64,000 nucleotides of DNA from an uncultured Actinomycetes bacterium (GTDB lineage: Bacteria; Actinomycetota; Thermoleophilia; Gaiellales; JALYLC01). The position numbers and the translations under genes were made by a program. The stretch lies in NCBI GenBank assembly GCA_963696735.1, contig CAVOLG010000006.1, forward strand, positions 3,442 to 67,441, read 5' to 3'. The notes under the pieces were generated by a model, which searched no databases, was not told the DNA's origin, and saw nothing but the letters and a program-made list of their open reading frames with translations. Below, piece after piece: positions 19,870 to 43,875 of the stretch (position 1 is its first letter; each line of letters begins with the position of its first letter).

Positions 19870-19898
19870 AGGGTATGAGCGAGTGGCTCATATTGCAA
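19870..19898 (-). promoter_or_regulatory. Sigma70-type promoter with palindromic operator upstream of xylF
   Basis: Minus strand TTGCAA-N17-TACCCT; TATGAGC-N5-GCTCATA (19874-19892) fills the spacer. Confidence 0.6.
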
Positions 19899-19910
19899 GC
19901 GGGTGGGAAC

Positions 19911-21353
19911 TCAGGCGCGCGCGCGAGGCACGTCGCGGAGCGCCGGGTAGAGCGCGCGATAGGTCCTCGAGGGCGCCGGGATAGGCGGCCGCCCAGGCGG
20001 CGTCGGGCTCCACGATCCCGGCCGGATGCACGCACGCGGCCACGGCCTCGGCGGCGTCGGCGAAGGCCCCCGCGGCCATGCCGGCCAGGAGGGCCGCGCC
20101 GTAGGCGGCGCCCTCGTCCACGGCCACCCGCTCGAGGCGAAGCTCGAGCACGGAGGCCACGATGCGCAGCCATTCCGTGCTCCGCGTCCCGCCGCCCGAG
20201 ACCCGGCCGCGGTCGGCGCCGACCCCCAGGTCGCGCAGGAGGTCCAGCGAGTCGCGCAGGCCGAAGGCCACACCCTCGAGGACGGCGCGGACCAGCGCGC
20301 CGCGGTCGTGGCGGAGGGTGAGGCCGGCGAAGGCCCCGCGCGCCTCGGGGTCCGCGTGCGGGGTGCGCTCGCCGGCCAGGTAGGGCAGGAACACCAGCCC
20401 CTCGGTGCCGGGCGGCCAGGCCGCGGCCTCGGTCACGAGCTCGTCGTAGGACGCCCCGCCCGTGGCATCGCGCAGCCACCGCAGCGCCCCGCCGGCCGAG
20501 AGGGTCACGCCCATGAGGTGCCACCGGCCGGGGACGGCGTGGCAGAAGGCGTGGGCGCGCGCCATCGGGTCCGACGCGTACGACGGGCAGCGCGGCGAAG
20601 ACCACCCCCGACGTCCCGAGGGCCACCGACAGCGGGCCGTGCTCGTCCACCACGCCCACGCCCAGGGCACCCGCGGCCTGGTCGCCCGCGCCGGCTGCCA
20701 CGGGGACGCCGCCGGCCGTCGTGCCGCTCACCTCCGGCGACTCGAGGGCGGCCGGGAGCCACTCGAGCGGGATGTCCAGGGCCTCGGCCACCTCCGCGCT
20801 CCAGCGCCGGTCGGCCACGTCCAGGAGCAGCGTCCCCGAGGCGTCCGAGACGTCGGTGGCGCAGCTCGCCGGTCAGGCGGAGGCGGACGTAGTCCTTGGG
20901 CAGGAGCACGTGGGCGATGCGCCCGTAGAGCTCGGGCTCGTGCGTCCGCATCCACAGCAGCTTCGGCGCGGTGAAGCCGGCCAGCGCGCGGTTCCCGGTC
21001 AGGCGCACCAGGCGCTCGAGCCCGATCCGCTCCTCGATCTCGCGGCACTCCTCGCCCGTGCGCGCGTCGTTCCACAGGATGGCCGGCCGCAGCACGCGTC
21101 TGCTGTCGTCCAGGGCCACCAGCCCGTGCATCTGGCCCGAGAGCCCGATGGCGGCGATGCCGTGCCGCGACAGCGCCTCGAGCGCGCCGCGCGCGGCGGC
21201 CCACCAGTCCTCGGGGTCCTGCTCGGACCAGCCCGGCCGCGGCGTGGAGAGGGGGTAGGGACGCTCCTCGCGCCCGACCACCTCGCCGTCGGGCGTGACG
21301 GCCAGGGCCTTGACGCCGGTGGTCCCGACGTCGAGCCCGACGAGGACGCTCAC
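19911..21353 (-). CDS. xylB: Xylulokinase (frameshifted)
   Basis: GLDVGTTGVKA, GLSGQMHG, ILWND, GFTAPKLLW, LPKDY, GAGDQAAGA, PYLAGERTPH. Confidence 0.92.
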
Positions 21354-30952: not shown

Positions 30953-31069
30953 GGCTTCGCCGGTGCGCCGAAGCCACCAGCGTTGGCCGTACGGAACATC
31001 AGCATCGCCCCTGAAGCCGCGGCCCAGAGGAAGGAGGGGGCCAACGGGGGAACCACGGGTTCCCCCGTT
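30953..31069. repeat. Paired hairpins between convergent genes (REP-like element or bidirectional terminator)
   Basis: AACGGGGGAACC-ACG-GGTTCCCCCGTT at 31043-31069; GGCTTCG-N9-CGAAGCC from about 30953. Confidence 0.6.
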
Positions 31070-31070
31070 T

Positions 31071-32107
31071 CTAGCCCCACGGTTCGTTGTACTGGTGGAA
31101 GAACGGGCAGGCCTGGGGCTCGCCGATGGTCACCGCCGGGTTGCCGCCGTCCTGGGCGAAGTGGAGGTGGGCCACGCCGTTGGCCTCGCCCGAGAGGCCG
31201 AGCTGCTGGCCCGCCTGCACCAGCTGGCCCGGCCGGACGTCGATGCGGGAGAGGTGCGCGTAGTAGAACCGCTGAGCGCCGGTGTCCAGGTTGACTCGCA
31301 GGCCCTGCAGACGAGGGTCGGTGGAGTTGAGCGAGCCGATGCCGCTCCCGATCACGCCGGGAGCCACGGCCAGGACGGGCGTGCCGATCGGGCACCGCGA
31401 TGTCGACGGCATCGTCGGAGGCAAGGTTGAACGGCCAGGTGAACGGGCTGTGCGTCGAGCCGATGACGAACGGGCAGCCGATGATCTGGCCGCGGCACGG
31501 CCAGCGGGTACGAGTACCCGAGCCCCCCGGGGTGGGCGAAGAAGACGGCGGAGAGGGCGAGCGGCGAGGCGGCCACCGCCGGGGCCGCGCGGGCCAGGCG
31601 CGATGCGGCGTGGCGGCGGGCCGGGGCCGTGGGCAGGCCGAGCAGGACGTCGGAGCCGGGGCCCAGGGCGCCGTCGGCCCCGGCCAGGTGCAGGCGCAGG
31701 CCGACGAGGCCCGCGCTGCCCGGCGCCACGGCTTCCTGCAGGCCGACGAGGTAGCCGCGCGTCCCGAGGGTGACAAGGGTGTTGGCCCCGACGGTGCGCG
31801 CCTGGCCGTCCACGGTCAGGCCCGTGACGCGGGCGCCGTAGAAGCCGTGGCGGGGGACGACGATGGTGGCTGCCCGCACCTGGCCGCCGAGCAGGCTGAC
31901 GCCCCGCAGCACGGTCTCCCTGCGGGTGGCGGAGACGGACTGCACCCGCACCAGCGAGCCGCTGCCCGGGTAGGCGAACCGTCCCGTGCTGGCAGACGCC
32001 ACGACGACGCCGCCCGGGTCGTGGACCTCGACCGCGGCCGCCTGCGCGGCGCCGGGGAGGACGGCCGCCGCCAGCGCCACGAGGAGGACGACCGCGCCGC
32101 GAGCCAC
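31071..32107 (-). CDS. Secreted M23-family peptidase (frameshifted)
   Basis: Signal peptide; AVDIAVPIGTPVLAV, YYAHLS, GQQLGLSG, HLHF. Confidence 0.85.
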
Positions 32108-32158
32108 GACCGCGAGGATAGCGAGCGCCGCGCCGGCGTCCGGCTAGGGTTCGCGCGC

Positions 32159-32732
32159 ATGCCGGTGACCACCCGGTCCCCGTTCTGGCGGGTTCGCACC
32201 CTCGGGGCAGCGGCCCTCTGTGCCCTGGCCGGCCACGCCGCGCTCTACCGGAGCCTCTGGCCGGGCGGCGGCGCCCACGGCTACCTCGGCTGGTACGAGG
32301 CCGCGCTCGGCGCGGCTGTCGTGCTCGCGCTGGCCGGGCTGGCCGCGCTGGTCGTGATCCCCGGGCCTCCGCCGGCGGCTCGCCGTCTCGCCGGGGCGCT
32401 CCGTCCCGGTCGGCGACCGGGCACGCGTCCTCACCGGCTTCGCCCTGGCCTGGCTCGCCGGCCAGGAGGCCGCCGAGCACCTGACCGCGGGCGGCTCGCC
32501 GAACGTGGCTCCGAGCGCCTGGCTGCTGGCCGTCATCGCCTGTCTCGCGGCAGCCCTCGTCGTGGCCTGGGCCGAGCGGGGCGCACACGCCGTCCTCGCC
32601 GGGACCGCCGCCATTCCGCGCTCGCGGGCCGCGCGGGCGACGGGCCTGCGGCCGCTCGTGGTCCGCTCGCCCCGCCGCCGTCCGATCGCCCTGCACCGCG
32701 CCCTGCGCGCGCCGCCCGCCCTCCTCGCCTAG
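32159..32732 (+). CDS. Membrane protein with C-terminal RAPP motif (one frameshift)
   Basis: AGHAALY..HGYL..QEAAEH, hydrophobic segments, Arg/Pro-rich tail ending HRALRAPPALLA. Confidence 0.7.
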
Positions 32733-32771
32733 GCCACCTCGCGCCCTTCGGGGCGCCGACCAGCGAGGAAC

Positions 32772-33779
32772 GTGACCGTCGATCCGCCCTGCCGCCGGCT
32801 GCGGCCGGCCTCGATCGCCATCGCCACCCTGGCCCTGCTCGCGGGGCCGGCGCCCGCCTGGGCGCACAGCGGCTCGGCCACCGCCGCGGGCGCGAGCTAC
32901 GAGGTCCGCGGCCTGCGCTTCGACCCGCCCGTGCCCGGCCTCCAGGCGCGCGTCATCGGAGGCGACCAGCAGTTGCGCCTGCAGGTTCCCCCCGATCTTC
33001 CGGTCACGGTCCTGGGCGACGAGGGCGAGCCGTTCCTCCGCTTCACCGCCAGCGGGGTGGACGTGAACCTGGCCTCGCCGACGGCTGCCGTCGCCCGCCT
33101 CGGCCCCAAGGGCGCGCAGCCCGGGGCCTCTCGCTGGCGCCACCTCACCAACGGACATGCGCTGGCCTGGCATGAGGGGCGCCTGCGCCCTCGCCCGCTC
33201 GGTGGGGCGCCGGCCTCCGCCCAGCTGGCCGGGGACGTGGCCATTCCGCTGCAGGTGGCGGGCCAGCGCGTCCACGTGGTCGGGCAGTCCTGGTACGCCC
33301 CGGGACCGCCGGTCTGGCCGTGGCTGATCCCGGCCGTGGTGATCGTGCTCGGGACCGCCCTCGTGCTCCTCCGCGGCCGGGCGCCGGTGGCCGCCGGCGC
33401 GGTGCTCGCCCTGGCCCCGCTGGCAGTGGTGGCCACACTGTGGAGCATGGCCGGCATCACCCTGGCCGGCCCGCACTCGGCCCTGGCCTCGGCGGTCGAG
33501 ATCGGATCTGCCGCGCTGCTCGGCCTGGCGGGTCTGGCCTACCTCGGCCTCAGCGGAGCCGGGGCGCGGCTCGGCGGCGCGGTCGTCCTGGGGACGCTCG
33601 CGTGCCTCGAGGCCACGGGGCTCCTCGGCGCCCTGACCCACGGGTTCGTGCTCTCGGCCTCCTCGCCCGACCTGACGCGCGGCGCCATCGCACTGGCCTT
33701 CTGGGCCGGCGTGGGGATGGTGGCCATCGCGGGGGGCGAGCTGGCGCGGGAGGCTCTCACGGTGCGGGGGAGCCGGTGA
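32772..33779 (+). CDS. Exported-domain plus multi-TM hypothetical protein
   Basis: Signal peptide AWA-H, GDEGEPFLRF, AWHEGR, about 5 C-terminal TM segments. Confidence 0.75.
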   Translation: MTVDPPCRRLRPASIAIATLALLAGPAPAWAHSGSATAAGASYEVRGLRFDPPVPGLQARVIGGDQQLRLQVPPDLPVTVLGDEGEPFLRFTASGVDVNLASPTAAVARLGPKGAQPGASRWRHLTNGHALAWHEGRLRPRPLGGAPASAQLAGDVAIPLQVAGQRVHVVGQSWYAPGPPVWPWLIPAVVIVLGTALVLLRGRAPVAAGAVLALAPLAVVATLWSMAGITLAGPHSALASAVEIGSAALLGLAGLAYLGLSGAGARLGGAVVLGTLACLEATGLLGALTHGFVLSASSPDLTRGAIALAFWAGVGMVAIAGGELAREALTVRGSR

Positions 33780-34330
33780 AGGCGGCCGTCATCCTGCTCG
33801 CCGCGGCGGGTACCGCGGCCGGTGGTCTCCCGCCCGGGTACGAGCCGCGGCCCGTAGGCCCCTCGCCCGCGTATCGGCCCAGCGCCGTCGGTCCGCTCGC
33901 GCCGCCGCGTGGACTGCCCTGCGGCAGCGCGCACGGGCGCGGGACTCTCGTCCACGTCGAGCTCTTCGTCCATCGCTACGTGGTCGTGGTGCCCGCGGGG
34001 ATCGGCATTGCCCGTCCGCGCCGCCACGGTGCGTACGTGATCGGAGGCGCCTGCCGCCGGCCGCTGTACACGCTCGAGCCCACCGGCGTCGTCCACGTGG
34101 CGGTAGGCCGGCCGGCCACGTTGGGAGCGCTCTTCGCGGTGTGGCGGATGCCGCTCGGGCCGAAGCGCCTGGCCGGCTTCGGCGGTCAGGGCGTTCGCGC
34201 CTACGTCGGCGGGCGCCGGGTGACGGGGGATGTCCGGCGCGTGCCATTGCGGCCGCACGCCGAGATCGTGCTCGAGCTCGGCGAGTACGTCGCGCCCCAC
34301 CACACCTACGCGTTTCCGGGGCGGCCATGA
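33776..34330 (+). CDS. Secreted hypothetical protein (paralogue of 39691-40422)
   Basis: HVELF..VVPAGIG..PLYTLEPTGVVHV..TLGALFAVW; GTGA overlap with the upstream gene. Confidence 0.7.
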   Translation: MKAAVILLAAAGTAAGGLPPGYEPRPVGPSPAYRPSAVGPLAPPRGLPCGSAHGRGTLVHVELFVHRYVVVVPAGIGIARPRRHGAYVIGGACRRPLYTLEPTGVVHVAVGRPATLGALFAVWRMPLGPKRLAGFGGQGVRAYVGGRRVTGDVRRVPLRPHAEIVLELGEYVAPHHTYAFPGRP

Positions 34331-35172
34331 GGATCCCCCTCCTCGCCGTCGTGCTCGCCCTCGTCGCCGCCGGCTGCTCCTCGGGAGGCGGCGGCGGCGG
34401 ACTGACGGCGCACATCCAGCCCGCCCGGGTGTTCGCCCTCTCCGGCGTCCAGCCCACCGGTGCCGCGCCGGTCGGGCGGCCGACGACGGTGGCCTTCACC
34501 ATCCGCCAGCCCTCGGGGCAGCCGTTGACGAAGTTCCGCACCGGCCCTGGGCCGCACACCGGCGTGCACGTGATCATCGTTCGCGACGACCTGTCGAGCA
34601 TCGTCCACGAGCACCCGCCGGTCGCGCCGAACGGGCGCATCTCGCTCCCGGTGACCTTCGCCCGGCCGGGTCACTACCGGATGCTGGTCGACGTCTACCC
34701 GGCGCTGGGCGGGCCGCTACGGAACTTCCAGCTCCATACCGACCTCCGAGCCGGCCGGGGCGGGGTCCGGCGCCCGCTGCCGCCCCCGCGCCAGGTAGTG
34801 ACCGTGGACGGCTACCGCGTGGCCATGACGAGCAAGCCACGGCTCGCTGCCATTCAGCCCGCCTTCATCCCCTTCAAGGTGACGGACACGAACGGCCGGC
34901 CGGCCCGGTTCGAACCGTGGTTCGGCGCGCTGGCCCACGCGATCTTCTTCCACGCCGGCAACCTCGACTACTTCCACACGCACGTGTGCTCTCCGGGAGC
35001 GACCGGCTGCGCGAGCCTCCTCGGCAGCTCGTCGGTCACCGGCCGGAGCACGAAGCCCGGCATCCTCACCGTCGGCGTCCTACTGCCCGAGCCCGGAACC
35101 TGGCGCCTGTTCTTGCAGACCCAGGTGAACGGCCACGTGATCACGGCCCCGTTCACCCTCAAGGTGCACTGA
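34327..35172 (+). CDS. His-rich putative metal-binding lipoprotein
   Basis: Lipobox AAGC; HTGVHVIIVRDDLSSIVHEHP; GALAH; YFHTHVC. Confidence 0.75.
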   Translation: MRIPLLAVVLALVAAGCSSGGGGGGLTAHIQPARVFALSGVQPTGAAPVGRPTTVAFTIRQPSGQPLTKFRTGPGPHTGVHVIIVRDDLSSIVHEHPPVAPNGRISLPVTFARPGHYRMLVDVYPALGGPLRNFQLHTDLRAGRGGVRRPLPPPRQVVTVDGYRVAMTSKPRLAAIQPAFIPFKVTDTNGRPARFEPWFGALAHAIFFHAGNLDYFHTHVCSPGATGCASLLGSSSVTGRSTKPGILTVGVLLPEPGTWRLFLQTQVNGHVITAPFTLKVH

Positions 35173-35182
35173 CCGATTCGTG

Positions 35183-35308
35183 TCAGGCCAGAGCGGTCTT
35201 GACCAGCAGGATGGCCACGATGATCGCCACGACGCCTGCGCCCAGGGCGACGACGGCGGCCACGAGCCGCAGGCGAACGCCGCCAAACGGCGTTTCGGGG
35301 TCGCTCAT
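35183..35308 (-). CDS. 41-aa membrane microprotein
   Basis: MSDPETPFGGVRLRLVAAVVALGAGVVAIIVAILLVKTALA; ATGA overlap with the copCD stop. Confidence 0.65.
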   Translation of the reverse strand: MSDPETPFGGVRLRLVAAVVALGAGVVAIIVAILLVKTALA

Positions 35309-37038
35309 CCGTTCGCCTGATCGAGGATGAGCGCGTTGAAGGCCGTCCCGCCCCTGGGCGCGACCTGGAAGTTGAGCGCCCACTTTCCGACCATGACGAG
35401 CGCGGGCGCGGCGCGCGAGTAGAGGCCTGGCTGAGTCTCGGCCAGCTGGTACGTCTGCTGGGGCATCTGCATCTCCGTATGGTTCAGTGTCAGCGTCACG
35501 TTCGCGCCCCGCACGGGCTGTCCGCCCTTGGTGATCCGAAGGGCGAAGCGGTCGGGCTGGACCGCCTTGTTGGGTGTGACGATCAGCTGCAGCGTGTAGC
35601 CGTCCTTGTTGATGGTCTTCGCGACCTGGCCGGGGCCGACCTGGGCAAGCGCCGAGTTCTGGAGCGCGAACGCCGGCGGCGGCGGCGCCAGGCTGGAGAG
35701 AACGGCGGCTGCGAAGACGGCGATCGCGATCAGCAGCGTCTCCCCGCTGATGAGCCTGCGCAGCACGCGCGCCGTGGGCTCGCCGAGCTCCGGCCGCGTC
35801 CGGGCGGCGACCAGTCGTGGCTTGGTGAAGAGCAGGTTGGCGGCGCCGAGCAGCATGGCCGCCGCCAGCAGGCCGATCTTCACCAGGATGGCCACGCCGT
35901 AGCTCGTATCCCAGAGCGCGTTGAGGACCGGCAGGTGGTTGATCGTCGCCCACGTCCCCGACGCCAGGAGCACCATCACCGAGACGAAGGCGACGTTCGA
36001 GAAGCGCGGCACGACGATCGACAGGCCCTCGCCCCGCCGACCGCGCGCGGTGGCGATGTAGAGGACGAGCAGGCCGACCAGTCCGCCGAGCCACAACGAG
36101 CCGGAGAGCAGATGCAGCCAGTCGAGCAGGACCGACAGGCCGCGAGGAGCGGTCTGCGCGGCGTGACCGGCAGCGCCCGGCATGACGAGCACCGCCGCGG
36201 CGGCCAGCAACGCGCCGAGCAGCGAGACGATCTCGGCTAGCGAGCGTTGCTCGCGGGTCGGAGTGTCCAGCCAGAGCGCGATCCAGGCCGCGGCGCAGAA
36301 GAGGGCAAAGCAGAGCGCCATGTCGACGTAGCCACGGCCGAAGGCGGTGACGCGGAACAGCGGCACCAGCGATGGCACGGCGAAGACCGAGCGCAACGAG
36401 TCGGTGGCCGTGGCGAAGTCGAGGTACGCCGGAATCGCGACCAGGGCGACGAGCGAAACGACCACGAAGGCCCATGAGACGGACGTCAGGCTCGAGCCCG
36501 GCACGCGTCGCATGAGCGGCCGCGCGATCAGCATCCGGAAGACGAACAGCCCGATCGCGAGCATCGTGGAGAGGAACATCGCCCAGCGAGCGATCAGGAG
36601 GTTGGTCGACGTCGCCGAGGCCGCGATGCTGGGCACCCGGAACTGCGGCGCCGGGCCGGGGTTCGGCCCGATGGCATAGGTGAAGGCGCCCTGAACCGGG
36701 TGGCCGTCGACCGAGATCGCCCGCCAGTAGACGAGGTACCAGCCCTCGGGAAGATGCGGTCGAAGCGGCACGACCAGCGTGTCCGGATTGGCGGGCGACC
36801 TCGTGACCGGACCGGTCGTCACCTGCTGCCCCGCGGCGTTGGTCACGGAGATGATCGCGAACTTCGGCTCGACCGCTTCGTCGTACGTCAGCTGCACGCT
36901 CGGGGGCGGAGCCGCGAGGACGCCACTCGCCGCCGGCACGGTCCTGATGAGATAGGCGTGCGCCGACGCGGTCGCCGGCAGCACGAGGCCGGCGGCGACC
37001 GCCGCCAGCGCGAGAAGGATCAGCCCCCGCCGTCTCAC
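35305..37038 (-). CDS. CopC-CopD-YtkA/FixH fusion copper uptake protein (YcnJ-like)
   Basis: ASA-HAYL, WRAISVDGH, GHA, DWLHLLSGSLWLGGL, RFS, TSYG..LVK, C-terminal HTEMQM. Confidence 0.92.
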   Translation of the reverse strand: MRRRGLILLALAAVAAGLVLPATASAHAYLIRTVPAASGVLAAPPPSVQLTYDEAVEPKFAIISVTNAAGQQVTTGPVTRSPANPDTLVVPLRPHLPEGWYLVYWRAISVDGHPVQGAFTYAIGPNPGPAPQFRVPSIAASATSTNLLIARWAMFLSTMLAIGLFVFRMLIARPLMRRVPGSSLTSVSWAFVVVSLVALVAIPAYLDFATATDSLRSVFAVPSLVPLFRVTAFGRGYVDMALCFALFCAAAWIALWLDTPTREQRSLAEIVSLLGALLAAAAVLVMPGAAGHAAQTAPRGLSVLLDWLHLLSGSLWLGGLVGLLVLYIATARGRRGEGLSIVVPRFSNVAFVSVMVLLASGTWATINHLPVLNALWDTSYGVAILVKIGLLAAAMLLGAANLLFTKPRLVAARTRPELGEPTARVLRRLISGETLLIAIAVFAAAVLSSLAPPPPAFALQNSALAQVGPGQVAKTINKDGYTLQLIVTPNKAVQPDRFALRITKGGQPVRGANVTLTLNHTEMQMPQQTYQLAETQPGLYSRAAPALVMVGKWALNFQVAPRGGTAFNALILDQANG

Positions 37039-37655
37039 GCGAGCGGGCGCTGCTTTCCGCTCCCGCTGCCCCTGACGAGCGCATAGCCGCCGGCGGCCAG
37101 CCCGAGCAGGCCGACGACCAGCGCGACGATCGTCAGCGTCGAGACGCTGCCGCCCCCGAGCGAGCTCTTGGCCTCGATCGTCGGGGCCGGAGCGTCCGAA
37201 GTCTCCGGGCCGGACCAGTTGACGATCGAGCCGTCGGAGTAGGTCTGCTCGACCTGGAACGTGTAGGTCTTGCTCGACGCGGGCTGGGCGAGGAACTGGA
37301 AGAGCGAGTCCTGCCCGGTCGGGGTCTTCCCGCCGGTCCACGTGACCTTCGTGATGACCGCGCTGTCCCCGGAGCCGCTCTGCTGCTCCGACTGCTTCCA
37401 GCCCGGCGGCGGTGGCACGAACGAGTCGATTCCGAACCCGGCCGGCACCGTCAGGACGATCTTGGACGTCGTCAGGTTGCTCTTCTCGGTCGGCACAGCG
37501 AGGCTGTAGAGCTGGAGCTTGCCCGAGAGCGATACGGGCGGGCTGACGCGCGCGTGGGCGGACGCCGACGCCGCGAGCGCCAGCGAGCCCACGGTCACGA
37601 CCGTGATGCCGAGCAGCCGCGTGATGCCACGCCCAGGGCCCGTGTGTCGAGGCAT
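37035..37655 (-). CDS. ycnI: YcnI/DUF1775 copper-binding membrane protein
   Basis: ASA-HARVSP, VPTE, PGW, VTWTGG, QTYSDGSIVNW, C-terminal TM. Confidence 0.88.
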   Translation of the reverse strand: MPRHTGPGRGITRLLGITVVTVGSLALAASASAHARVSPPVSLSGKLQLYSLAVPTEKSNLTTSKIVLTVPAGFGIDSFVPPPPGWKQSEQQSGSGDSAVITKVTWTGGKTPTGQDSLFQFLAQPASSKTYTFQVEQTYSDGSIVNWSGPETSDAPAPTIEAKSSLGGGSVSTLTIVALVVGLLGLAAGGYALVRGSGSGKQRPLA

Positions 37656-37733
37656 GTCGATCACCTTTCTGTCGTTGCCTTTCCGGAAGCCATGGCGCGG
37701 CCAGCAGCCGACGCCCGCTTGCTCAGGCAACGG

Positions 37734-38348
37734 CTAGCGGGCTATGGCGCCGACCGCGGGGCGAGGCGGCGGCCCGCGGCCGGAGGCCCCGCTCGCCAGC
37801 ACCCGCACACGGCGCAAGCACGCATCGGCCACGAGCCGGCCGGGCGAAGCCGCGGGGCGACGGCGCTGGGCGAGCCCGCTCAGCATCCGGCCGAGCCGCT
37901 CGGTGACGCGGAGCAGGAACCTGGCGATCAGGTAGGCGGCGAGCGCAAACGGCAGCTGAAGCAGCAGGCCGACGCGGAAGGTCGGCTGGAGGACGGTCCA
38001 CCACGGGAACGACGCTCCGGCCAGCCAGCGCTCCAGGAACTCCTGCAACGTGAAGCCCAACACGGGCAACAGTGCGAACGCCCAGGCCGGCACCGGCCGC
38101 TGGCGGCCACGGCCGAGGCAGGTCGCGAGCCAGGTGAGCGTGACGAGCTCGACCGCAAACCCGAGCCCCATGAGGAGCGGCAGAAACGCCGGGTAGCGCG
38201 CGTAGCCGTGGCCGGTGGCCAGGAGCTCGCTCCAGCGAACCCGGGCTTCCGGATACACCAGCCGGAACGCCAGCACGTGGGCCACCTGCGAGCCCGCCAC
38301 CATCAACGGCAACGAGGACAACCAGGCAGCCAGGCGACGCCCGCGCAC
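37734..38348 (-). CDS. Membrane protein with C-terminal RGPP motif
   Basis: GSQVAHVLAF..HGY..LQEFLE, about 4 TM segments, tail GASGRGPPP. Confidence 0.75.
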   Translation of the reverse strand: MRGRRLAAWLSSLPLMVAGSQVAHVLAFRLVYPEARVRWSELLATGHGYARYPAFLPLLMGLGFAVELVTLTWLATCLGRGRQRPVPAWAFALLPVLGFTLQEFLERWLAGASFPWWTVLQPTFRVGLLLQLPFALAAYLIARFLLRVTERLGRMLSGLAQRRRPAASPGRLVADACLRRVRVLASGASGRGPPPRPAVGAIAR

Positions 38349-38408
38349 ACCCGGATTGAACCACAGGCCGCACCGAGGTCAGCCCCGCGGAGACGGGGCC
38401 GGGTCCGG

Positions 38409-39035
38409 TCAGGTCCGGAGGCGGCGGCGGGCCAGCAGGTAGCCGGCCCCAAGGGCCAGGGCCAGGATGGCAGCCACGACCAGGGCCACGATCACGGTCG
38501 AGCTCCCCGTGTGGGCCGGGCCGCCCGAGCTCGAGGGCGGGGCCGGGGCGGTGGTGGGGAGAGGATGGCCGCCGGCCGCCGCCAACCGGCGGGTGCCGTC
38601 GAGCGCGGCGCGGCCCAGGCCGTTGATGCCCGGCGCGATGTGCAGACCCGCCAGGGCCCGGCGGGCGCGGGCCGGCGGGAGGCCCGCCGTCCCGACCCCG
38701 TTGGGCATCACCACCAGGAGCCCGCCGCGGTACCCGTACAGCTCCGCGTAGAGGAACCGGGCGTAGCGCTTCGGCTGCTTCCACAGGCCCGTGATCGCGC
38801 CCAGGTCCAGGGTCGAGCCGATCACCGCCACCCGGATCGGGTAGTGCGCCTTCTTGGCCGCCGCCGTGGCCTGGTCGATCTGGGCCGCGAGCGCCTTGTC
38901 CATCGGCGGGTTGTAGGGCAGGAAGGTGTTCTGGAAGAGGAGCACGTCGCTGGCCGGGTCGCCGTCGGCGGCGGCCGTCCCGGCCTGCAGCGCGACGGCA
39001 ACGGCCAGGGCGGCCGCGAGGATCGCCAGTCGCAT
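38409..39035 (-). CDS. Exported, C-terminally anchored hypothetical protein (DGDPASD motif)
   Basis: Signal peptide, DGDPASDVL, LLVVMPNG, C-terminal TM plus RRR. Confidence 0.75.
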   Translation of the reverse strand: MRLAILAAALAVAVALQAGTAAADGDPASDVLLFQNTFLPYNPPMDKALAAQIDQATAAAKKAHYPIRVAVIGSTLDLGAITGLWKQPKRYARFLYAELYGYRGGLLVVMPNGVGTAGLPPARARRALAGLHIAPGINGLGRAALDGTRRLAAAGGHPLPTTAPAPPSSSGGPAHTGSSTVIVALVVAAILALALGAGYLLARRRLRT

Positions 39036-39039
39036 TCGG

Positions 39040-39648
39040 CTACGCCGCTCCGGCGAGCAGGCCGGCGTCGTGCAGCACCTGCCGCGGGTCGAGCGGGCTT
39101 GCCGGGTAGAGCGTGCGGATCAGGCCCTGCGGGTCGATGCCGTAGATGAGGGCGGTGTGCTCGACCAGCTCGGGGTCGGACTTGATGCCGTGAATGCGCT
39201 TGCTCCCGACGTCGTACTCCTTCCAGACGGGCGCGAGCTGGGCGCGGGTCCCGAGCAGGAAGTGGACCTTGTGCAGCAGCCCCCGGGCGGCCAGCCAGCG
39301 CCGCACGTGCGCCGGCCTGTCGCCGGCCGGGTCGACCGATACGGCCACCACGGCGAAGCGAGGGCCGACCGCGTCACGGCTTCGGGCGAGCGTCTGCAGG
39401 ATCAGCGGGCACGTGTTCTTGCAGTGCGAGTACACGAACGTCAGGCCGATGGCCTTGCCACGGAACTGGTCCAGTGACACCGGTCGGCCGAACTGATCGT
39501 GCAGCTGGAAGTTCGGGGCTGCGCGGCGCGCGGTGACCACCATCGGGGCAGCGAAGTCGCTGCGCGCGGCCTCCTTGTGGCCGCTGTTCCCGCAGGCCGT
39601 GGCCGCCAGGACGGCGGCCAGGACCGCGCCGAGCACGAGTGGGCGCAC
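39040..39648 (-). CDS. SCO1/SenC copper chaperone lipoprotein
   Basis: Lipobox ATAC, FVYSHCKNTCP (CxxxC), SVDPAGD, VEHT..IDPQG. Confidence 0.93.
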   Translation of the reverse strand: MRPLVLGAVLAAVLAATACGNSGHKEAARSDFAAPMVVTARRAAPNFQLHDQFGRPVSLDQFRGKAIGLTFVYSHCKNTCPLILQTLARSRDAVGPRFAVVAVSVDPAGDRPAHVRRWLAARGLLHKVHFLLGTRAQLAPVWKEYDVGSKRIHGIKSDPELVEHTALIYGIDPQGLIRTLYPASPLDPRQVLHDAGLLAGAA

Positions 39649-39690
39649 CGGGGCAGGATAGGCGCAGCGACGCGCCGCCGAGCGGAGGGG

Positions 39691-40422
39691 CTAGAGCCCG
39701 TTCCAGGCGAAGGTCGAGCGGATCTTCTTCGGCATCTGCGCCGGCGTGCCGTACGCGAGGACGATGACCTGGTGCGAGGCCAGAACGAGCGCGCTCGGGT
39801 CACCATTCTGCGGCGTCCCATTCAGCCACCAGCGCAGCTCCTTGCCGTTCCCGGCGCAGTACATGCCGATGCAGTCCTTCGTCAGCTTCACGCCCCAGAC
39901 GCCGAAGGCCTCGCCCAGGGTGTAGGGCCGGTTCTTCGGCGACTCGTCGTGGAGGACGCCCGGGTACTGCGTGTGCACGTGCAGCGGCGACAGGAACCGG
40001 CCCACGAGGTCGATGCCCATGTTGCCGGGGATGAACATGTGCTTGCCGTCGACGTAGATGTCGATGTGCTGGTGGATGTGGACGATCTCGCGCTGATGCG
40101 TCAGCTCAGGGAGGCCGAGGGCGGACACGCGCCCTTCGAGGGCCAGGGTCGATCCGGAGTTCCACGGCGCAGGCCCGGTCTGCATGCCCTCCAGCTGGCT
40201 CCAGTCCACCTTGGTGGAGACCGAGGAGCCCTGGCCGAACGCGGCATAGGCCCCGAGGGCGACGAGGACCACGACGAGGGCCGCGCCTCCGGCGAGGAGG
40301 CCGACGCGGCGGCGGTCGCGTTGCGGAGTGTGCCCCGGAGGCAGCCGGCGTCCGCTCCTCTTGCCGGCGGCGGCCCGCCTGGCCTGGTTGGCCTTGGTGG
40401 CCTCCAGCTTGCGCTTGCTCAT
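39691..40422 (-). CDS. His-rich membrane-anchored hypothetical protein
   Basis: TM helix, HIHQHIDIYVDG, SPLHVH..GVLHDES, YTLGEAFGVWG. Confidence 0.8.
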   Translation of the reverse strand: MSKRKLEATKANQARRAAAGKRSGRRLPPGHTPQRDRRRVGLLAGGAALVVVLVALGAYAAFGQGSSVSTKVDWSQLEGMQTGPAPWNSGSTLALEGRVSALGLPELTHQREIVHIHQHIDIYVDGKHMFIPGNMGIDLVGRFLSPLHVHTQYPGVLHDESPKNRPYTLGEAFGVWGVKLTKDCIGMYCAGNGKELRWWLNGTPQNGDPSALVLASHQVIVLAYGTPAQMPKKIRSTFAWNGL

Positions 40423-40474
40423 GCCCGCAGAATAGGTGCGGATTCAGCAGATGCCCGCACCAGCGGGTCCTGCG

Positions 40475-41143
40475 TCAAGTCAGGCCGGGGGTGACCAGGC
40501 CGCTCTCGTAGGCGTAGATCACGGTCTGCACCCGATCGCGCAATCCGAGCTTGTGCAGGATGCGCGCGACGTGGGTCTTGGCCGTGGCCTCGCTGATCAC
40601 CAGCCGGTCGCAGATCTCGGGATTGGAGAGACCGCGGGCCAGGAGGTCGAGCACCTCGCGCTCCCGCGGCGTGAGGCTCTCGAGGGCCGGCGACGCCCGG
40701 TCGGCGGGCGCCTCGGACGGCCGCCGGCGGGCGAACTCCTCGATCACGGCCCGTGTGACCGCCGGTGCGAGCAGGGCATCGCCGTTGGCCACGATGCGCA
40801 CGGCGGCGGCGATCTCCTCCGGCGGGGCGTCCTTGAGCATGAAGCCGCTGGCCCCCGCCTGGAGCGCGTCGTAGACGTACGCATCCAGTCCGAAGGTGGT
40901 CAGGATCAGGACCCTGGTGGAGGGCTGCGCGCCCACGATCCGCCGGGTGGCCTCGATGCCGTCGAGGACCGGCATGCGGATGTCCATGAGCACCACGTCC
41001 GGCCGCAGGGCCTGGGCGGCGGTCACGGCCTGCTTGCCGTCGGCCGCGTCACCGACGACGGTGGTGCCGGGCTCGACCTCGAGGATCTTGCGCAGGCCGA
41101 CGCGCACCAGGCCCTGGTCGTCGGCGATGAGGACGGTGATCAT
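40475..41143 (-). CDS. NarL/LuxR response regulator
   Basis: IADDQ, LMDIRMP, LTTF, LTPREREVL, TAKTHV. Confidence 0.95.
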   Translation of the reverse strand: MITVLIADDQGLVRVGLRKILEVEPGTTVVGDAADGKQAVTAAQALRPDVVLMDIRMPVLDGIEATRRIVGAQPSTRVLILTTFGLDAYVYDALQAGASGFMLKDAPPEEIAAAVRIVANGDALLAPAVTRAVIEEFARRRPSEAPADRASPALESLTPREREVLDLLARGLSNPEICDRLVISEATAKTHVARILHKLGLRDRVQTVIYAYESGLVTPGLT

Positions 41144-41197
41144 CGAGATCGACGGTAGTGCGCACGCCGCCCGTTGTCATCGGCCGTGCGGCTGATC

Positions 41198-42151
41198 TCA
41201 GACGGCGTCCTCACGGGCGGCGGGGCCGAGCAGGCGCTCGACGAGGACGCAGTCCTGCCAGCGCCCGTCGAGGCGGCCGTGCCGGCGCTGGACGCCGACC
41301 TCGCGGAACCCCGCGGCCCGATGCGCCCGGAGGCTGGCCGCGTTCGTGGTCAGCACGCGGCTCGTCAGCTTGGTCATGCCGCTGCGCTCCGCGACCTCGG
41401 CCAGCGCCTCGAGCAGGTCGCGCCCGATTCCCCGCCCATGGACGTCCGGATGCACGTACACGGCGTGCTCCCCCACACCGGCGTAGACCGCCCGCGGCGA
41501 GTACGGCGTGACGCGCGCCCAGCCCACGACCTCGCCGTCGTCGGCCGCGACCAGGAAGGGCAGCCCGCTGTCGAACCAGCGCAGGACGTCGTCCGGCCTG
41601 CGCGGTTCGGTCTCGAACGTGGCCTCGCGGCCGGCGATGCCATGGTTGTAGATGTCGCACACGGCCTCGGCGTCCGCGCGGGTGGCCGGGCGGATGGTCG
41701 TGGTCGCCGGCAGGGTCTTGGCGAAGAACACGCGCTCGAAGCCGTGCTCGCCGCGGCGTTCCGTCTCCCGGTACCCGAGATGGCCGTACAGGGCCTGGTT
41801 CTCGGTCATCGTCACGTGGGTGTACAGGCGCAGCTCGGGGAGCCGGCGCTCCCGGGCCTCGCGCTCGGCGAAGGCCAGGAGCTCGCCGCCGACGCCGCTG
41901 CCCTGCCGCTCGGGGTCCACGGCCACGTTGTCGATCAGCAGGTGATCCTCGTGCGGGACGAGCACGATGAGCCCGGCGATGCCCTGCTCGTCCTCGGCCA
42001 CATAGGCCTCGTCGTCGCGCACTCGCGCGTCGTAGTCGTCGTCCATCGGGGCCGGGCGGCGGCCGATGCGGTCGACGTAGCGGCCGTAGGCCCGCTGGAC
42101 CAGCTCGTACATGGCGCGGCTGTCGGCCGGGACGGCAGGACGGATGTCCAC
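41198..42151 (-). CDS. Double GNAT fusion with a C-terminal Pat/ArsN1-like domain
   Basis: DNVAVDPERQGSGVG; then IYNHGI..ATFETEP, VYVHPDVHGRGIG, HGRLDGRWQD. Confidence 0.85.
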   Translation of the reverse strand: MDIRPAVPADSRAMYELVQRAYGRYVDRIGRRPAPMDDDYDARVRDDEAYVAEDEQGIAGLIVLVPHEDHLLIDNVAVDPERQGSGVGGELLAFAEREARERRLPELRLYTHVTMTENQALYGHLGYRETERRGEHGFERVFFAKTLPATTTIRPATRADAEAVCDIYNHGIAGREATFETEPRRPDDVLRWFDSGLPFLVAADDGEVVGWARVTPYSPRAVYAGVGEHAVYVHPDVHGRGIGRDLLEALAEVAERSGMTKLTSRVLTTNAASLRAHRAAGFREVGVQRRHGRLDGRWQDCVLVERLLGPAAREDAV

Positions 42152-42274
42152 GTCCGGAGAGTTCCAGATCAGCGGCGGCGCGCGCCACCGGCGGCCTGCT
42201 GCACGTTGGCAGGGCTCATCCATGCGGGTGCCCGCGTCGCGCCAGGGGCGGCCGCCAGCCCATAGAGTCGCGTG

Positions 42275-43875
42275 ATGCGCAAGTGGCTCCCGCTCGTCAT
42301 CCTCGCGTCGGCCCAGTTCATCATGGTGCTGGACTCGAGCGTGATGAACGTCTCGATCTCGCAGATCGTGGCCGACCTGAACACGACGGTCACGGGCGTG
42401 CAGAGCGCGATCACGATGTACACGCTCGTGATGGCGGCGTTCATGCTGGTCGGCGCGAAGCTCGGCGACATCCTCGGGCGTGACCGCGCCTTCGGCCTCG
42501 GCCTGGCGGTGTACGGGCTCGGCTCGCTGATCACGTCGCTCAGCCCGAACCTCACGGTGCTGCTGATCGGCTGGTCGGGGATCGAGGGGCTCGGCGCGGT
42601 GCTCGTGATCCCGGCGATCGCCGCGCTGACCGCCGCGAACTACGAGGGCAAGGAGCGCGCGTTCGCCTACGGGATGATCGGCGGCGCCGCGGGCGCGGCG
42701 ATCGCCGCCGGCCCGCTGATCGGCGGCTACGTGACGACGACCTGGAGCTGGCGGTACGTCTTCGTCGGCGAGGTCGTGGTGGTGATCGCGGTGCTTGCCG
42801 TCCACCGTCGCATGAAGCGCGCGCCCAAGCCGGAGCAGGCGCCGAAGCTGGACTACGGCGGCGCCGCGCTCTCGGCGCGTCGCGCTCGGGCTGATCGTGT
42901 TCGGGATCCTGAAGAGCAGCACCTGGGGCTGGATCAAGCCGATCGCCGCGCCGACGATCGACGGGCACGAGATCACGCCGCTCGGCTTCTCGCTGGTGCC
43001 GTTCCTGATCATCGGCGGCTTCGTCGTCCTCGGCTGCTTCCTCGACCTGGGAGGAGCGCCGCGAACGGCTCGGCCAGAGCACGCTCCTCAACCGCGCGCT
43101 GCTGAAGATCGAGACGCTGCGCGGCGGGCTGTCGTCGCTGTGCGCGCAGCAGCTGATCGTGATGGGCACGTTCTTCGTCCTGCCGGTGTACCTCCAGGTC
43201 GTGCTCGGCTTCGACGCGTTCGAGACGGGCAAGCGGCTCTTCCCGATGTCGGTCTCGATGCTGGCCGCTGCGCTCACTGGGCCGAAGGTGGCAGTGCGGT
43301 TCGGGCCGCGGGCCGTCGTCCAGGTCGGCCTCGGGGCAATGGCGATCGCTGCGCTCGTGCTCGTCGGGACGATCGACGTGACCCTGAACGGGACGGCCTT
43401 CGCCGTGTCGCTCATCTTCTTCGGGATCGGCGCCGGGCTCCTCATGTCGCAGCTCGGCAACGTGATCATGTCCTCCGTCCCACCGGAGGAGACGAACGAG
43501 GCCGGTGGACTGCAGGGGACTGCGCAGAACCTCGGCGCGTCCCTCGGCACCGCGCTGATCGGCTCCGTGCTCCTGCTCGGGCTGCTGAACGGGTTCAACG
43601 CGCGGATCGAGCAGAACCCGGCGTTGCCGTCCGACGTGAAGACGCAGATCGCGGCCGCCACCGAGAAGGGCATCCCCATCGTCACGACCGAGCAGGCGCA
43701 CAAGGCGCTGCTCGACGCCGGGCTGACGCCGGCCGAGGCAGACGCCGTCACGGCCGACTACGGCAACGCCCAGCTCGACGCGCTGAAGACGTCGATGCTC
43801 GCGGTCGCGTTCCTCGCGGCGCTTTCGCTCTGGTTCACGCGGCGGTTACCCGGAAGGCCCGAGGAAGCTGCCTAG
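42275..43875 (+). CDS. MFS transporter, DHA2-like (frameshifted)
   Basis: QFIMVLDSSVMNV, GAKLGDILGR, GPLIGG, GLQGTAQNLG. Confidence 0.92.

Follow-up and report, generated by a model that had tools for sequence, protein, structure and literature searches.

A family of membrane proteins with near-terminal RAPP or RGPP motifs ahead of copper-related genes: two candidate arrest loci in an uncultured actinomycete

Organization of the two loci

The DNA analyzed here (the window), a stretch of 64,000 nucleotides from an uncultured actinomycete, contains two genes, referred to as paralog 1 and paralog 2, which encode predicted membrane proteins that carry RAPP and RGPP, respectively, near their C-termini. 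Each gene is followed on its own strand by a gene set and, as a first-pass annotation had noted, the two sets converge, i.e., the plus-strand set ends at 35172 and the minus-strand set at 35305. The plus-strand features are:

32159..32365 (+): N-terminal part of paralog 1, in the frame of 32159; ATG, first helix with AGH, HGY loop, second helix
32358..32367 (+): frame break of paralog 1; a single surplus base relative to intact homologues
32358..32732 (+): C-terminal part of paralog 1, read in frame with 32160; QEAAEH-bearing third helix, fourth helix and then, in order, an Arg/Pro-rich spacer, RAPP, ALLA and TAG
32706..32717 (+): RAPP codons of paralog 1 (cgc gcg ccg ccc), four codons 5' of the TAG at 32730-32732
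32722..32728 (+): anti-Shine-Dalgarno stretch (UCCUCGC) within the codons of the paralog 1 tail
32763..32774 (+): Shine-Dalgarno (SD) sequence GCGAGGA (32763-32769) and GTG start (32772-32774) of the gene after paralog 1
32772..33779 (+): P335, a 335-aa ORF with a signal-like leader (...AWA/HSG) and a C-terminal multi-helix region
33779..34330 (+): P183, an ORF of about 183 aa; start uncertain
34324..35172 (+): P282, a 282-aa lipoprotein-like ORF that contains the motifs HEHPP and HTH

Paralog 1 is frame-broken in the present assembly. The first-pass annotation had read 32159-32732 as one ORF, but this joins two frames without saying so, with the break near 32358-32367. An ORF and frame check gave a length of 574 nt, which is no multiple of 3, and placed AGH and HGY in the frame of 32159 and the region from QEAAEH to RAPP in the frame of 32160, where a TGA is found at 32355-32357 and no ATG, GTG or TTG start occurs before 32505. 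Upon profile matching in the window's own genome, the N-terminal part aligns to A2, the paralog-1 profile, over positions 1-81 and the C-terminal part over positions 67-190. At the break, where homologues encode P-G-L-R-R-R, the sequence of the window is ...GGGCCTCCG..., i.e., there is an extra base near 32366. Seven homologues of paralog 1 found elsewhere are intact (182-191 aa), and in relatives' contigs from three soil runs the frame is restored either by -1 at 32359 (X3) or, in X1 and X2, by +2 after 32366.

The minus-strand features are:

35305..37086 (-): CopC-CopD-YtkA/FixH fusion (Pfam CopC 9e-20, CopD 2e-16, YtkA 2e-8)
37035..37655 (-): YcnI (DUF1775; Pfam E 7.4e-14)
37673..37732 (-): hairpin predicted within the 78 nt that separate paralog 2 from ycnI, CGUUGCCU ... 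AGGCAACG
37734..38348 (-): paralog 2, an intact single ORF of 204 aa; predicted four-helix membrane protein
37767..37778 (-): RGPP codons of paralog 2 (cgc ggg ccg ccg), ten codons 5' of the TAG at 37736-37734
38409..41143 (-): co-directional genes 5' of paralog 2, listed below
38409-39035 (-): 208-aa ORF
39040-39648 (-): SCO1/SenC
39691-40422 (-): 243-aa ORF
40475-41143 (-): NarL/LuxR-type response regulator with a LuxR-type HTH; head of the minus-strand string

The earlier description of two matching genes is therefore confirmed in part, i.e., for the intact paralog 2 and not for paralog 1 as a single ORF, while both terminal motifs are encoded where it had placed them, near the stop codons. 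Paralog 2 carries VAH in the first helix (H24), GHGY (G46-H47-Y49), QEFLER (Q102-E103-E106-R107) and RGPP (R191-G-P-P194), in agreement with the VAH, HGY and QE..E motifs noted earlier. Its AF2 model (pLDDT 82.6) has helices at residues 3-31, 56-76, 88-109 and 122-163, followed by a coil tail (164-204).

The distance to the next gene is 39 nt after paralog 1 and 78 nt after paralog 2. The three proteins encoded after paralog 1 gave no family match in Pfam or NCBIfam; by eye, all start with a hydrophobic or lipoprotein-like leader and contain His-rich motifs, consistent with the earlier account of three exported, His-bearing proteins. P335 follows a paralog-1-type gene in three of six other genomes, P183 is also present in the copper clusters, and P282 lies directly 5' of a family gene in many Solirubrobacterales loci. 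Paralog 2 does precede ycnI and the copCD fusion, as had been proposed, but it does not head its gene string, which begins four co-directional ORFs upstream. Among the 20 window ORFs scanned, none belongs to a CsoR, CueR or YcnK-type family, as had been stated, but the response regulator at the head of the minus-strand string had gone unmentioned.

A conserved membrane-protein family with a near-terminal motif

Pairwise BLASTP found nothing between the two proteins. A first profile comparison gave a moderate result (72.9%, E 3e-5) and a deeper hhalign comparison a clear one (97.8%, E 7.1e-13, 164 columns), which identifies the two as remote homologues and upholds the proposed paralogy even though BLASTP was blank. 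Homologues number 702 at E<=1e-3 in a word-index search, and at the 50% identity level the family comprises 1,578 clusters when the limit is E<=1e-3 and 720 when it is E<=1e-10. Neither Pfam nor NCBIfam holds a model for it, and neither window protein matches a Pfam family at E<=0.01. In a sample of the phylum, 97 of 401 genomes have a match (89 of 393 when eight unpublished genomes are left out), and the 97 genomes matching the A3 profile are all at most about 6.6 Mb in size. By these sequence comparisons both loci encode one large, unnamed family of Actinomycetota membrane proteins, predicted to have about 190-210 aa and four helices.

Every full-length homologue examined carries the motif close to its C-terminus, and 120/120 close homologues have it. 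Among 139 aligned, diverse members R-x-P-P is invariant, and the only invariant columns are H24, E103, R191, P193 and P194; the H-x-Y and QE..E positions are also conserved in family alignments, as the first-pass annotation had anticipated. Because R-x-P-P is found in 139/139 members and because all four synonymous codons are in use at R, G, P and P across genome loci, its conservation is more than chance. The motif lies within the last 45 aa in 135 of 150 cluster representatives; the other 15 are two proteins that run on beyond an RGPP at about residue 190 and 13 partial matches that stop short of the C-terminal end of the profile. At genome loci the motif is in frame in 77/80 cases and in a shifted frame in the remaining three, and in published genomes from other classes it lies 2-10 aa from the stop at all 25 loci. 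Among the members examined the tail after the motif spans 1-28 residues, and motif position 2 is G, A or, rarely, S.

The spacer that links TM4 to the motif is fixed in length, with 58.6±1.3 aa between P133 and R191 (range 54-63, n=139), but variable in sequence, i.e., at positions 157-172 the commonest residue reaches just 17-41%. Four long hydrophobic helices are found in both AF2 models, i.e., each protein carries a potential localization signal. From the positive-inside rule, both termini would be cytoplasmic; with that topology the polar residues facing outward would be the TM1 His, the H-x-Y just after TM1 and the Q-E-x-x-E at the outer end of TM3. No conserved Cys is found in the 139 members of A3 and no CxxC, as the first-pass annotation had stated; in A5, C21 is only nearly invariant, and it is not part of a CxxC. 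DUF2946 (Pfam PF11162) matches 0/139 and 0/12 members. One of the 139 members has a weak 60KD_IMP match (E 4e-4), which is probably noise. Because the membrane domain is conserved far beyond what is typical of leader peptides, this domain may act in its own right in the mature protein.

Relation to known arrest peptides

A switch of this kind, i.e., a RAPP/RGPP membrane protein ahead of copper genes, has already been published. Fujiwara et al. (EMBO J 2025; PMC12992588) describe RAPP/RGPP-bearing transmembrane uORFs 5' of YcnI-family and copper genes, so the novelty hoped for in the first-pass annotation does not hold. In their account the uORFs upstream of the YcnI family are for the most part TM proteins, and all seven RAPP/RGPP proteins tested from Streptomyces lividans arrested translation in a motif-dependent manner. 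The same S. lividans peptides gave weak arrest on E. coli ribosomes, which indicates that arrest is species-dependent. The S. lividans protein SLIV_18480 has four predicted TM helices, a predicted His-based copper site and motif-dependent arrest, and metal sensing was proposed for this four-TM Streptomyces example. Four predicted TM helices and a C-terminal RAPP or RGPP 5' of a metal-related gene are likewise found here and, as described in that report, the SLIV_18480-like uORFs share with the present family an R[AG]PP near the C-terminus, small size, a mostly transmembrane nature, a co-directional position 5' of YcnI/copper genes and occurrence in Actinomycetota. The putative ligands differ: compared by description only, SLIV_18480 has three conserved His, one Met and a Cys40/Cys127 pair, whereas the window proteins have two conserved His (H24, H47) and Glu/Glu, without a conserved Cys pair.

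These data bear on whether R[GA]PP might instead have a conserved function in the cytoplasmic tail of the mature protein, e.g., as a docking or processing site, with no useful stalling. In a rough and noisy ORF set from the window genome, RGPP and RAPP occur at 0.67 and 0.80 of expectation, just slightly rarer than AGPP (0.86) and AAPP (0.92), so that there is little extra depletion; together with the species dependence seen with the S. lividans peptides, this fits a tail motif. However, both the sequence and the length of the protein are free beyond the motif, and a module acting in the ribosome tunnel therefore fits better than a docking site. Furthermore, the variants at position 2 match the tolerance reported for arrest by Fujiwara et al., and each actinomycete protein tested in that study did arrest. 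A tail motif of this type is thus considered very improbable.

Two proteins of the DUF2946 family provide a further comparison. In CruR of Bordetella pertussis (Roy et al., mBio 2022; PMC9426467) a C-terminal RAPP, three residues from the stop, is found at a conserved spacing of 45 residues from a CxxC, i.e., a metal-ligand motif lies at a conserved distance from the arrest motif, as is also predicted for the present family. CruR heads copper genes and copper-tuned arrest has been proposed for it, but it is exported and soluble and carries CxxC, while the present family has four TM helices and His/Glu and no CxxC or DUF2946 match. In CutF of Rhodobacter capsulatus (Ozturk et al., mBio 2023 and bioRxiv 2025) the ribosome-binding site of the next gene is shielded by a stem-loop, which melts when the ribosome stalls at a Pro-rich motif near the C-terminus. 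The same layout is predicted for paralog 1 and most short-tailed relatives, although CutF, which has a signal peptide and a Cys motif and in which copper is described as prolonging the stall, differs from them in family, topology and ligands.

The arrest peptides SecM, MifM, ApdA and ApdP also combine a C-terminal core of the RAPP or RAGP type with an upstream localization signal. In SecM and MifM the arrested ribosome unmasks an SD sequence. All four are Sec or YidC monitors located 5' of sec or yidC genes, while the genes downstream of the present family encode YcnI, CopCD and uncharacterized exported proteins. The family could in principle be a monitor of membrane-insertion capacity (YidC/Sec) of the MifM/ApdA type, with no copper signal and with His/Glu in a structural role; TM4, about 45 residues and an arrest motif would constitute the geometry of a force-sensing monitor, and the single 60KD_IMP match, although probably noise, points in the same direction. 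Yet copper proteins rather than Sec or YidC are found downstream, the invariant His and Glu would be near the outer face, and Fujiwara et al. class the YcnI-upstream uORFs apart from the Sec/YidC class, and we regard such a monitor as quite unlikely.

A proposed route from arrest to expression of the next gene

The next gene on the same strand, within an estimated 400 nt, encodes YcnI at 45, CopCD at 13 and SCO at one of 80 genome loci (59/80 in all), in line with the position that had been predicted for homologues. How a stalled ribosome could act on this gene was considered by RNA folding, with the P and A sites at 32712-32717 in paralog 1, placed after the CruR toeprint in PMC12992588. Counted from the first P-site codon base, the sequence UCCUCGC then lies 10 to 16 nt further 3', and in the predicted minimum-free-energy fold it pairs with the SD at 32763-32769 in a 7-bp helix. 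Under the stalled footprint lies 82% of the SD-core pairing mass, compared with 10% in shuffles, none of which (0/40) reach the observed value. In the short-tailed members (n=34, paralog 1 included) this share is 0.44 vs 0.11 when the footprint sequence is shuffled, and at 18 of the 34 loci at most 2/40 shuffles attain the observed pairing. In the long-tailed members, paralog 2 included, such pairing occurs in 0/23. The folding thus places an anti-SD beneath the predicted stalled ribosome in paralog 1 and most short-tailed relatives and not in paralog 2.

The predicted opening of the SD by the ribosome is small. The unpaired fraction of the SD, taken over 18 nt (n=56), is 0.36 in the free RNA, 0.41 when stalled and 0.40 with a control footprint; the SD core of short-tailed members gives 0.22, 0.36 and 0.30, respectively. 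A gain of at least 0.3 is found at 8/34 loci with the stall footprint and at 3/34 with the control, and in paralog 1 the SD core is predicted to open just from 0.00 to 0.17. RNAalifold found no structure shared by 14 loci, and the whole tail-to-start region of paralog 1 is not more stable than shuffles (z +0.33). For paralog 2 the whole-region z-score is -1.82 (12/200 shuffles are equally stable), and the ycnI SD (37663-37669) lies outside the predicted hairpin and is predicted to be 68% open in every state. The C excess of the CruR route, where Rho-dependent termination occurs over a 162-bp C-rich spacer (PMC9426467), is present in paralog 1 (C minus G from motif to start, 0.20 over 66 nt) and absent in paralog 2 (0.01), with group means of 0.05-0.065.

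From these considerations, the reading that we favor, with some reservation, is that a ribosome stalled at R[GA]PP sets expression of the next gene and that the nascent membrane domain tunes the pause. By analogy with RAPP/RGPP peptides, for which this is established, the motif would halt translation at the point where the two Pro codons occupy the P and A sites. The end of TM4 would then be about 45 residues from the peptidyl-transferase center, i.e., TM4 would be just leaving the tunnel, and the duration of the stop would be set by the nascent membrane domain, probably through copper at the outward His/Glu site and/or insertion of TM4. The stopped ribosome would in turn determine expression of the next gene. 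In paralog 1 and most short-tailed relatives it would cover the sequence that pairs with the SD of that gene, and stalling would therefore mean ON, as with CutF, SecM and MifM. Paralog 2, with its ten-codon tail and 78-nt spacer, lacks this anti-SD design; candidate couplings are Rho, the hairpin or translational coupling.

Arrest could also be real but serve the making of the protein itself, i.e., provide time for insertion of TM4, for metal loading or for assembly with YcnI/CopCD. The strongly conserved membrane domain with its invariant H24 and E103, the fixed spacer length, which fits the timing of TM4 exit, the SD after paralog 2, predicted to be open with or without a stalled ribosome, and the mid-string position of paralog 2 would all be accommodated. 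Against this stand the SD-footprint pairing of the short-tailed members, which is far above that of shuffles, the location of the family gene directly 5' of YcnI, CopCD or SCO at most loci, and the published RAPP cases CruR and CutF, which are described as controlling the next gene; a role confined to the protein's own making therefore seems unlikely.

Taken together, control of the next gene by a stalled ribosome remains the preferred reading, and the earlier interpretation of the two genes as metal-sensing stalling leaders is partly supported by the sequence analysis. More tentatively, and as a possibility to which we assign a rather low likelihood, the family may be a widespread copper sensor that operates at the time of translation without a transcription factor. 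In such a sensor an outward His/Glu metal site of TM1/TM3 would decide whether TM4 inserts and so releases the chain from arrest at R[GA]PP by pulling on it, with the 58-59-residue spacer as the ruler. There would be two wirings, one in which short tails unmask the next SD while the ribosome is stalled and another in which long tails use a different route, and the two diverged copies in one genome would allow independent control of two convergent copper gene sets.

Two related genes, one of them split

The first-pass annotation had paired an RAPP-ending gene (paralog 1) and an RGPP-ending gene (paralog 2) as candidate ribosome-stalling metal sensors. These genes and their neighbors in the window, where P-numbers denote flanking ORFs, are:

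32159-32732 (+), paralog 1, RAPP-ending
32772-33779 (+), P335, 3' of paralog 1
33779-34330 (+), P183, 3' of paralog 1
34324-35172 (+), P282, 3' of paralog 1
35305-37086 (-), CopC-CopD-YtkA fusion, downstream of paralog 2
37035-37655 (-), YcnI, downstream of paralog 2
37734-38348 (-), paralog 2, RGPP-ending
38409-39035 (-), P208, 5' of paralog 2
39691-40422 (-), P243, 5' of paralog 2
40475-41143 (-), response regulator (receiver and LuxR-type HTH)

The window has a G+C content of ~73%. Paralog 2 is one unbroken ORF of 204 aa, in which VAH lies inside the first hydrophobic stretch, followed by GHGY and then by QEFLER; the RGPP codons (37778-37767) are followed by ten further codons and a TAG stop. 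The stretch assigned to paralog 1 is 574 nt long, i.e., not a multiple of three. Its AGH and HGY portion is read in the frame of 32159 and its QEAAEH and RAPP (32706-32717) portion in the frame of 32160, where a TGA at 32355-32357 closes the frame and no ordinary start is found until 32505. The paralog 1 protein consequently exists only if the two frames are joined, and the description of two similarly built proteins holds for paralog 2 as an intact ORF, but not for paralog 1 as a single one.

We tentatively regard this break as more likely an assembly indel than the mark of a true pseudogene, a view based on intact relatives, on other broken genes and on the state of the assembly. The C-terminal piece of paralog 1 matches seven intact public proteins of 182-191 aa that read ...IPGLRRRL... 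across the break, and relative to these homologues a surplus base is present in the window near 32366. In contigs of relatives obtained from three soil metagenome runs (44-60 differences per kb), the frame is restored at this position by -1 or +2 bases; they speak for an intact frame elsewhere, not for this strain. Within the window, an MFS transporter is split into overlapping ORFs at 42266-43105 (+) and 43009-43875 (+), covering profile positions 1-185 and 199-347, respectively. By eye, a peptidase (31071-32107, -) extends over three frames and a glycosyltransferase (5525-6226, +) goes out of frame; an apparent RGPP-terminal ORF at the latter position was rejected as an artefact on this ground. 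Only the C-terminal parts of an FGGY kinase (18710-19156, -) and a periplasmic binding protein (19888-20727, -) are present. Together with the eight contigs of the source genome and its marker completeness of only 72%, these frame-shifted and truncated genes point to indel errors in the assembly.

The claimed paralogy of the two genes was borne out as remote homology. Kinship is seen by profile-profile comparison only; BLASTP gave no match between paralog 2 and either half of paralog 1, and hhalign with single sequences gave a weak one. A profile of the seven close paralog 1 homologues against the paralog 2 family profile yielded 72.9% (E 3e-5). When the paralog 1 profile was extended by five remoter paralog-1-type genes, taken from further genomes of the order, comparison with a 139-member paralog 2 profile yielded 97.8% (E 7.1e-13) over 164 columns, with His paired to His, H-x-Y to HGY, QE..E to QE..ER and RAPP to RGPP. 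In AlphaFold2 models, both proteins have four long helices followed by a tail without structure (pLDDT 82.6 for paralog 2 and 70.2 for paralog 1). From these comparisons of sequence, we conclude that paralogs 1 and 2 are remote homologues of one family.

Size and conservation of the family

A word-index search with paralog 2 returned 702 homologues at E<=1e-3, and its profile matched 1,578 clusters (50% identity) at E<=1e-3, 720 at 1e-10 and 170 at 1e-30. In a sample of the phylum, profile matches were found in 97 of 401 genomes, many outside the class of the window, or in 89 of 393 when eight unpublished genomes were left out. Records carrying the gene bear names such as Solirubrobacterales, Gaiellaceae and Thermoleophilia; the contigs of two loci, L060 and L047 (L-numbers denote family-gene loci in other genomes or contigs), are labeled as a Bifidobacterium breve MAG and a Candidatus Acidoferrales MAG, unlike all other titles, which carry Thermoleophilia and other actinobacterial names, and these labels probably reflect mis-binning. 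A tblastn search of plasmids gave no match.

The family proteins are annotated only as "hypothetical protein" in the sources that name them. No Pfam or NCBIfam family was found for the window proteins, a Pfam scan of 139 members gave only eight weak matches, all to different families and each seen in one member, and 12 further members gave no match. Hits in the ESM Atlas were limited to unnamed actinobacterial clusters, and a Foldseek search of the PDB for structural relatives found nothing at E<=0.001 (best E 1.0). Likeness to FtsX/MacB/BceB-type permeases was considered and set aside; the top VIA-align-wide Z scores, 7.3-6.2 to their four-helix membrane domains, fall below what the tool itself rates as meaningful for helical bundles, and the match is therefore read only as a common four-helix arrangement.

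Alignment of 139 diverse full-length members revealed only five invariant columns, H24, E103, R191, P193 and P194 (paralog 2 numbering). The His, HGY and QE features and the terminal R[AG]PP singled out in the first-pass annotation are conserved among homologues; G46, H47, Y49, Q102, E106, R107, Q131 and P133 are conserved in at least 90%. All of 120 close homologues carry the motif (111 RGPP, 5 RSPP, 4 RAPP), and 135 of 150 cluster representatives have it within the last 45 aa (95 RGPP, 40 RAPP). The other 15 include 13 partial profile matches that stop short of the C-terminal end of the profile, and two proteins, P0202 (264 aa) and P0171 (675 aa), in which the chain continues far past an RGPP at residue ~190; they may represent genuine fusions to the gene downstream, or else stops missed or frames shifted in the source contigs. 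At the genome level, the motif is in frame at 77 of 80 loci and in another frame at three, and it is found at 25 of 25 loci in published genomes of other classes. Among six paralog-1-type genes, five end in RAPP plus 3-5 residues, and the sixth has RAPP with no nearby stop. Because every one of the four synonymous codons is in use at the R, the G and both P positions, the constraint acts on the peptide. In a noisy set of stop-to-stop ORFs from this genome, affected by 5' extensions, wrong frames and assembly frame breaks, RGPP and RAPP are only slightly rarer than AGPP and AAPP.

Between P133, located in TM4, and R191 the spacer measures 58.6±1.3 residues (range 54-63). Its sequence is variable (the commonest residue at positions 157-172 reaches only 17-41%), conservation is moderate over the ten residues ahead of the motif (P179, R180, L184, A185, G187), and the tails past the motif are 1-28 residues long and not conserved.

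Gene neighborhood and the RNA ahead of the next start

The placement of these genes upstream of ycnI, copC or SCO genes was seen in 59 of 80 loci, where the following gene on the same strand, at an estimated distance of up to 400 nt, encodes YcnI (45), CopCD (13) or SCO (1). Such a gene lies farther away in ten more; at the remaining eleven, three of which have <800 nt of downstream sequence, none was found downstream by tblastn (E<=1e-5). P335, P183, P282, P208 and SCO recur together in the same clusters, and the gene after a paralog-1-type gene is P335 in three of six genomes and YcnI in two. On the minus strand of the window, the order is response regulator, 243-aa ORF, SCO, 208-aa ORF, paralog 2, YcnI and CopCD. 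Thus, paralog 2 precedes YcnI as proposed, but as the fifth co-directional gene it does not head the string; in many Solirubrobacterales loci P282 is directly 5' of the family gene, i.e., the family gene is not always a first-gene "leader".

P335, P183/P243, P282 and P208 have no Pfam or NCBIfam match and recur with YcnI, CopCD and SCO over dozens of Thermoleophilia loci; P243 and P183 are probably related, since both queries land on the same place in L047. By eye, a His is found right behind a signal-peptide-like AxA site in P335, YcnI and CopC alike; P335 has no sequence likeness to YcnI and no likeness to any solved chain. Regulators similar to the one heading the minus-strand copper string also occur near the family gene elsewhere: in L053 and L066 at ~4.5 kb downstream, and in L119 at ~1.8 kb upstream, there on the same strand.

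The predicted pairing of the RNA between the motif and the next gene differs with the length of the tail. If the predicted stalled ribosome is taken to cover -12 to +15 relative to the Pro codon in the P site (the footprint), loci with tails of <=6 codons (n=33) have a mean of 43% of the pairing of the Shine-Dalgarno (SD) core of the next gene within the footprint, and 20 of the 33 reach >=30%, as compared to 0.3% and 0 of 23 for tails of >=8 codons (n=23, including paralog 2). For the short-tailed set including paralog 1 (n=34), shuffling of the footprint gave 0.11 vs 0.44 observed; the observed value was above the shuffle mean in 26 of 34 loci and was reached by at most two of 40 shuffles in 18 of 34. 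For paralog 1 the value is 0.82 vs 0.10 shuffled (0 of 40 shuffles match), reflecting a predicted helix of UCCUCGC (32722-32728) with GCGAGGA (32763-32769), immediately 5' of the GTG at 32772. By eye, the sequence of this SD-footprint helix varies among relatives and the pairing is kept; RNAalifold found no common structure in 14 tail-to-start regions, because the MAFFT alignment loses the register of the helices.

For paralog 1, the probable route would be SD unmasking; the thermodynamic support for SD opening is weak. In a simple accessibility test the stall footprint was no different from a control footprint, a terminating-ribosome footprint gave an unpaired fraction of 0.41, and the predicted net opening by a stalled ribosome is small, near the control value. 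For paralog 2 the SD is predicted to be 68% unpaired in every state, and the spacer contains a predicted hairpin (37732-37673) and no C-over-G excess. Intergenic folding energies are not unusual on average (mean z -0.91 relative to mononucleotide shuffles, 11 of 56 below -2), and an Rfam scan of 31000-41500 gave two chance-level matches only (a microRNA family, E 0.07; an IRES, E 0.15).

Two further RNA features were observed. Many short-tailed loci (L036-L051, L043, L056, L064, L067, L071, L074, L080) have a G+C-rich hairpin of differing sequence between the stop and the next SD. In long-tailed Solirubrobacterales loci (L009, L012, L023, L024), GCAGCGG(TC) in the tail codons has its complement, (GA)CCGCTGC, in the spacer 60-70 nt downstream (by eye); a long-range helix is possible there, which would be opened only by a ribosome already past the arrest site.

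A putative arrest-based regulator of copper genes

Fujiwara et al. (EMBO J 2025, PMC12992588) describe RAPP and RGPP as the strongest arrest cores. Bacterial proteomes avoid these motifs, yet small secreted or membrane proteins are enriched for them close to the C-terminus; they are present in uORFs of Actinomycetota, and the uORFs ahead of YcnI-family genes mostly encode TM proteins. For each of the seven S. lividans candidates, arrest was seen both in vitro and in vivo and depended on the Arg; among these is SLIV_18480, a proposed metal sensor with four TM segments and a predicted His/Met copper site. In CruR (PMC9426467), copper relieves RAPP arrest, upon which Rho terminates transcription, and the CxxC-to-RAPP spacing is fixed at 45 residues; for CutF (PMC9973294; bioRxiv 10.1101/2025.02.05.636593), copper is reported to prolong the stall, which melts a stem-loop over the RBS of the next gene.

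By analogy with the published cases (PMC12992588), R[GA]PP would arrest the ribosome while its P and A sites are occupied by the two Pro codons. The Arg-rich N-terminus, TM2-TM3 loop and tail would be placed inside the cell, so that the conserved His, H-x-Y and QE..E would point toward the outer face, and the end of TM4 (residue ~147) would lie ~46 residues from the peptidyl-transferase center when the ribosome arrests. The signal may be copper or membrane insertion, and the response to copper could go up or down, as CruR and CutF show that either sign is possible. With moderate confidence, we consider an arrest-based cis-regulator the most likely mechanism.

The pattern described in the first-pass annotation is thus real apart from the frame break, and its interpretation is reasonable and agrees with the comparative evidence; it is not new, being an already published idea (PMC12992588). 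The family to which it is applied here is not named in the main text of that paper, to the extent consulted, and the supplements of the paper may list these proteins. As judged from sequence, the family is a new, large and unnamed member of the published RAPP/RGPP arrest-uORF class for copper genes. Details that may be new are its set of invariant His and Glu residues, a ruler of 58-59 residues, the two layouts of the tail, and the occurrence in a single genome of two diverged copies, each at the head of one of two convergent copper gene sets.

For annotation, this is a family without a Pfam or NCBIfam model. The release of RAPP-type arrest by ligand or membrane insertion is listed as an open question in PMC12992588, and the family, with its invariant His/Glu, fixed-length spacer and two tail layouts, offers a large natural sequence set for how such release occurs. 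If these proteins do stall ribosomes, copper-uptake and -handling genes in much of soil Actinomycetota (about a quarter of the sampled genomes) would be under translational control by a nascent membrane protein, and such control would replace a classic metal-binding repressor.
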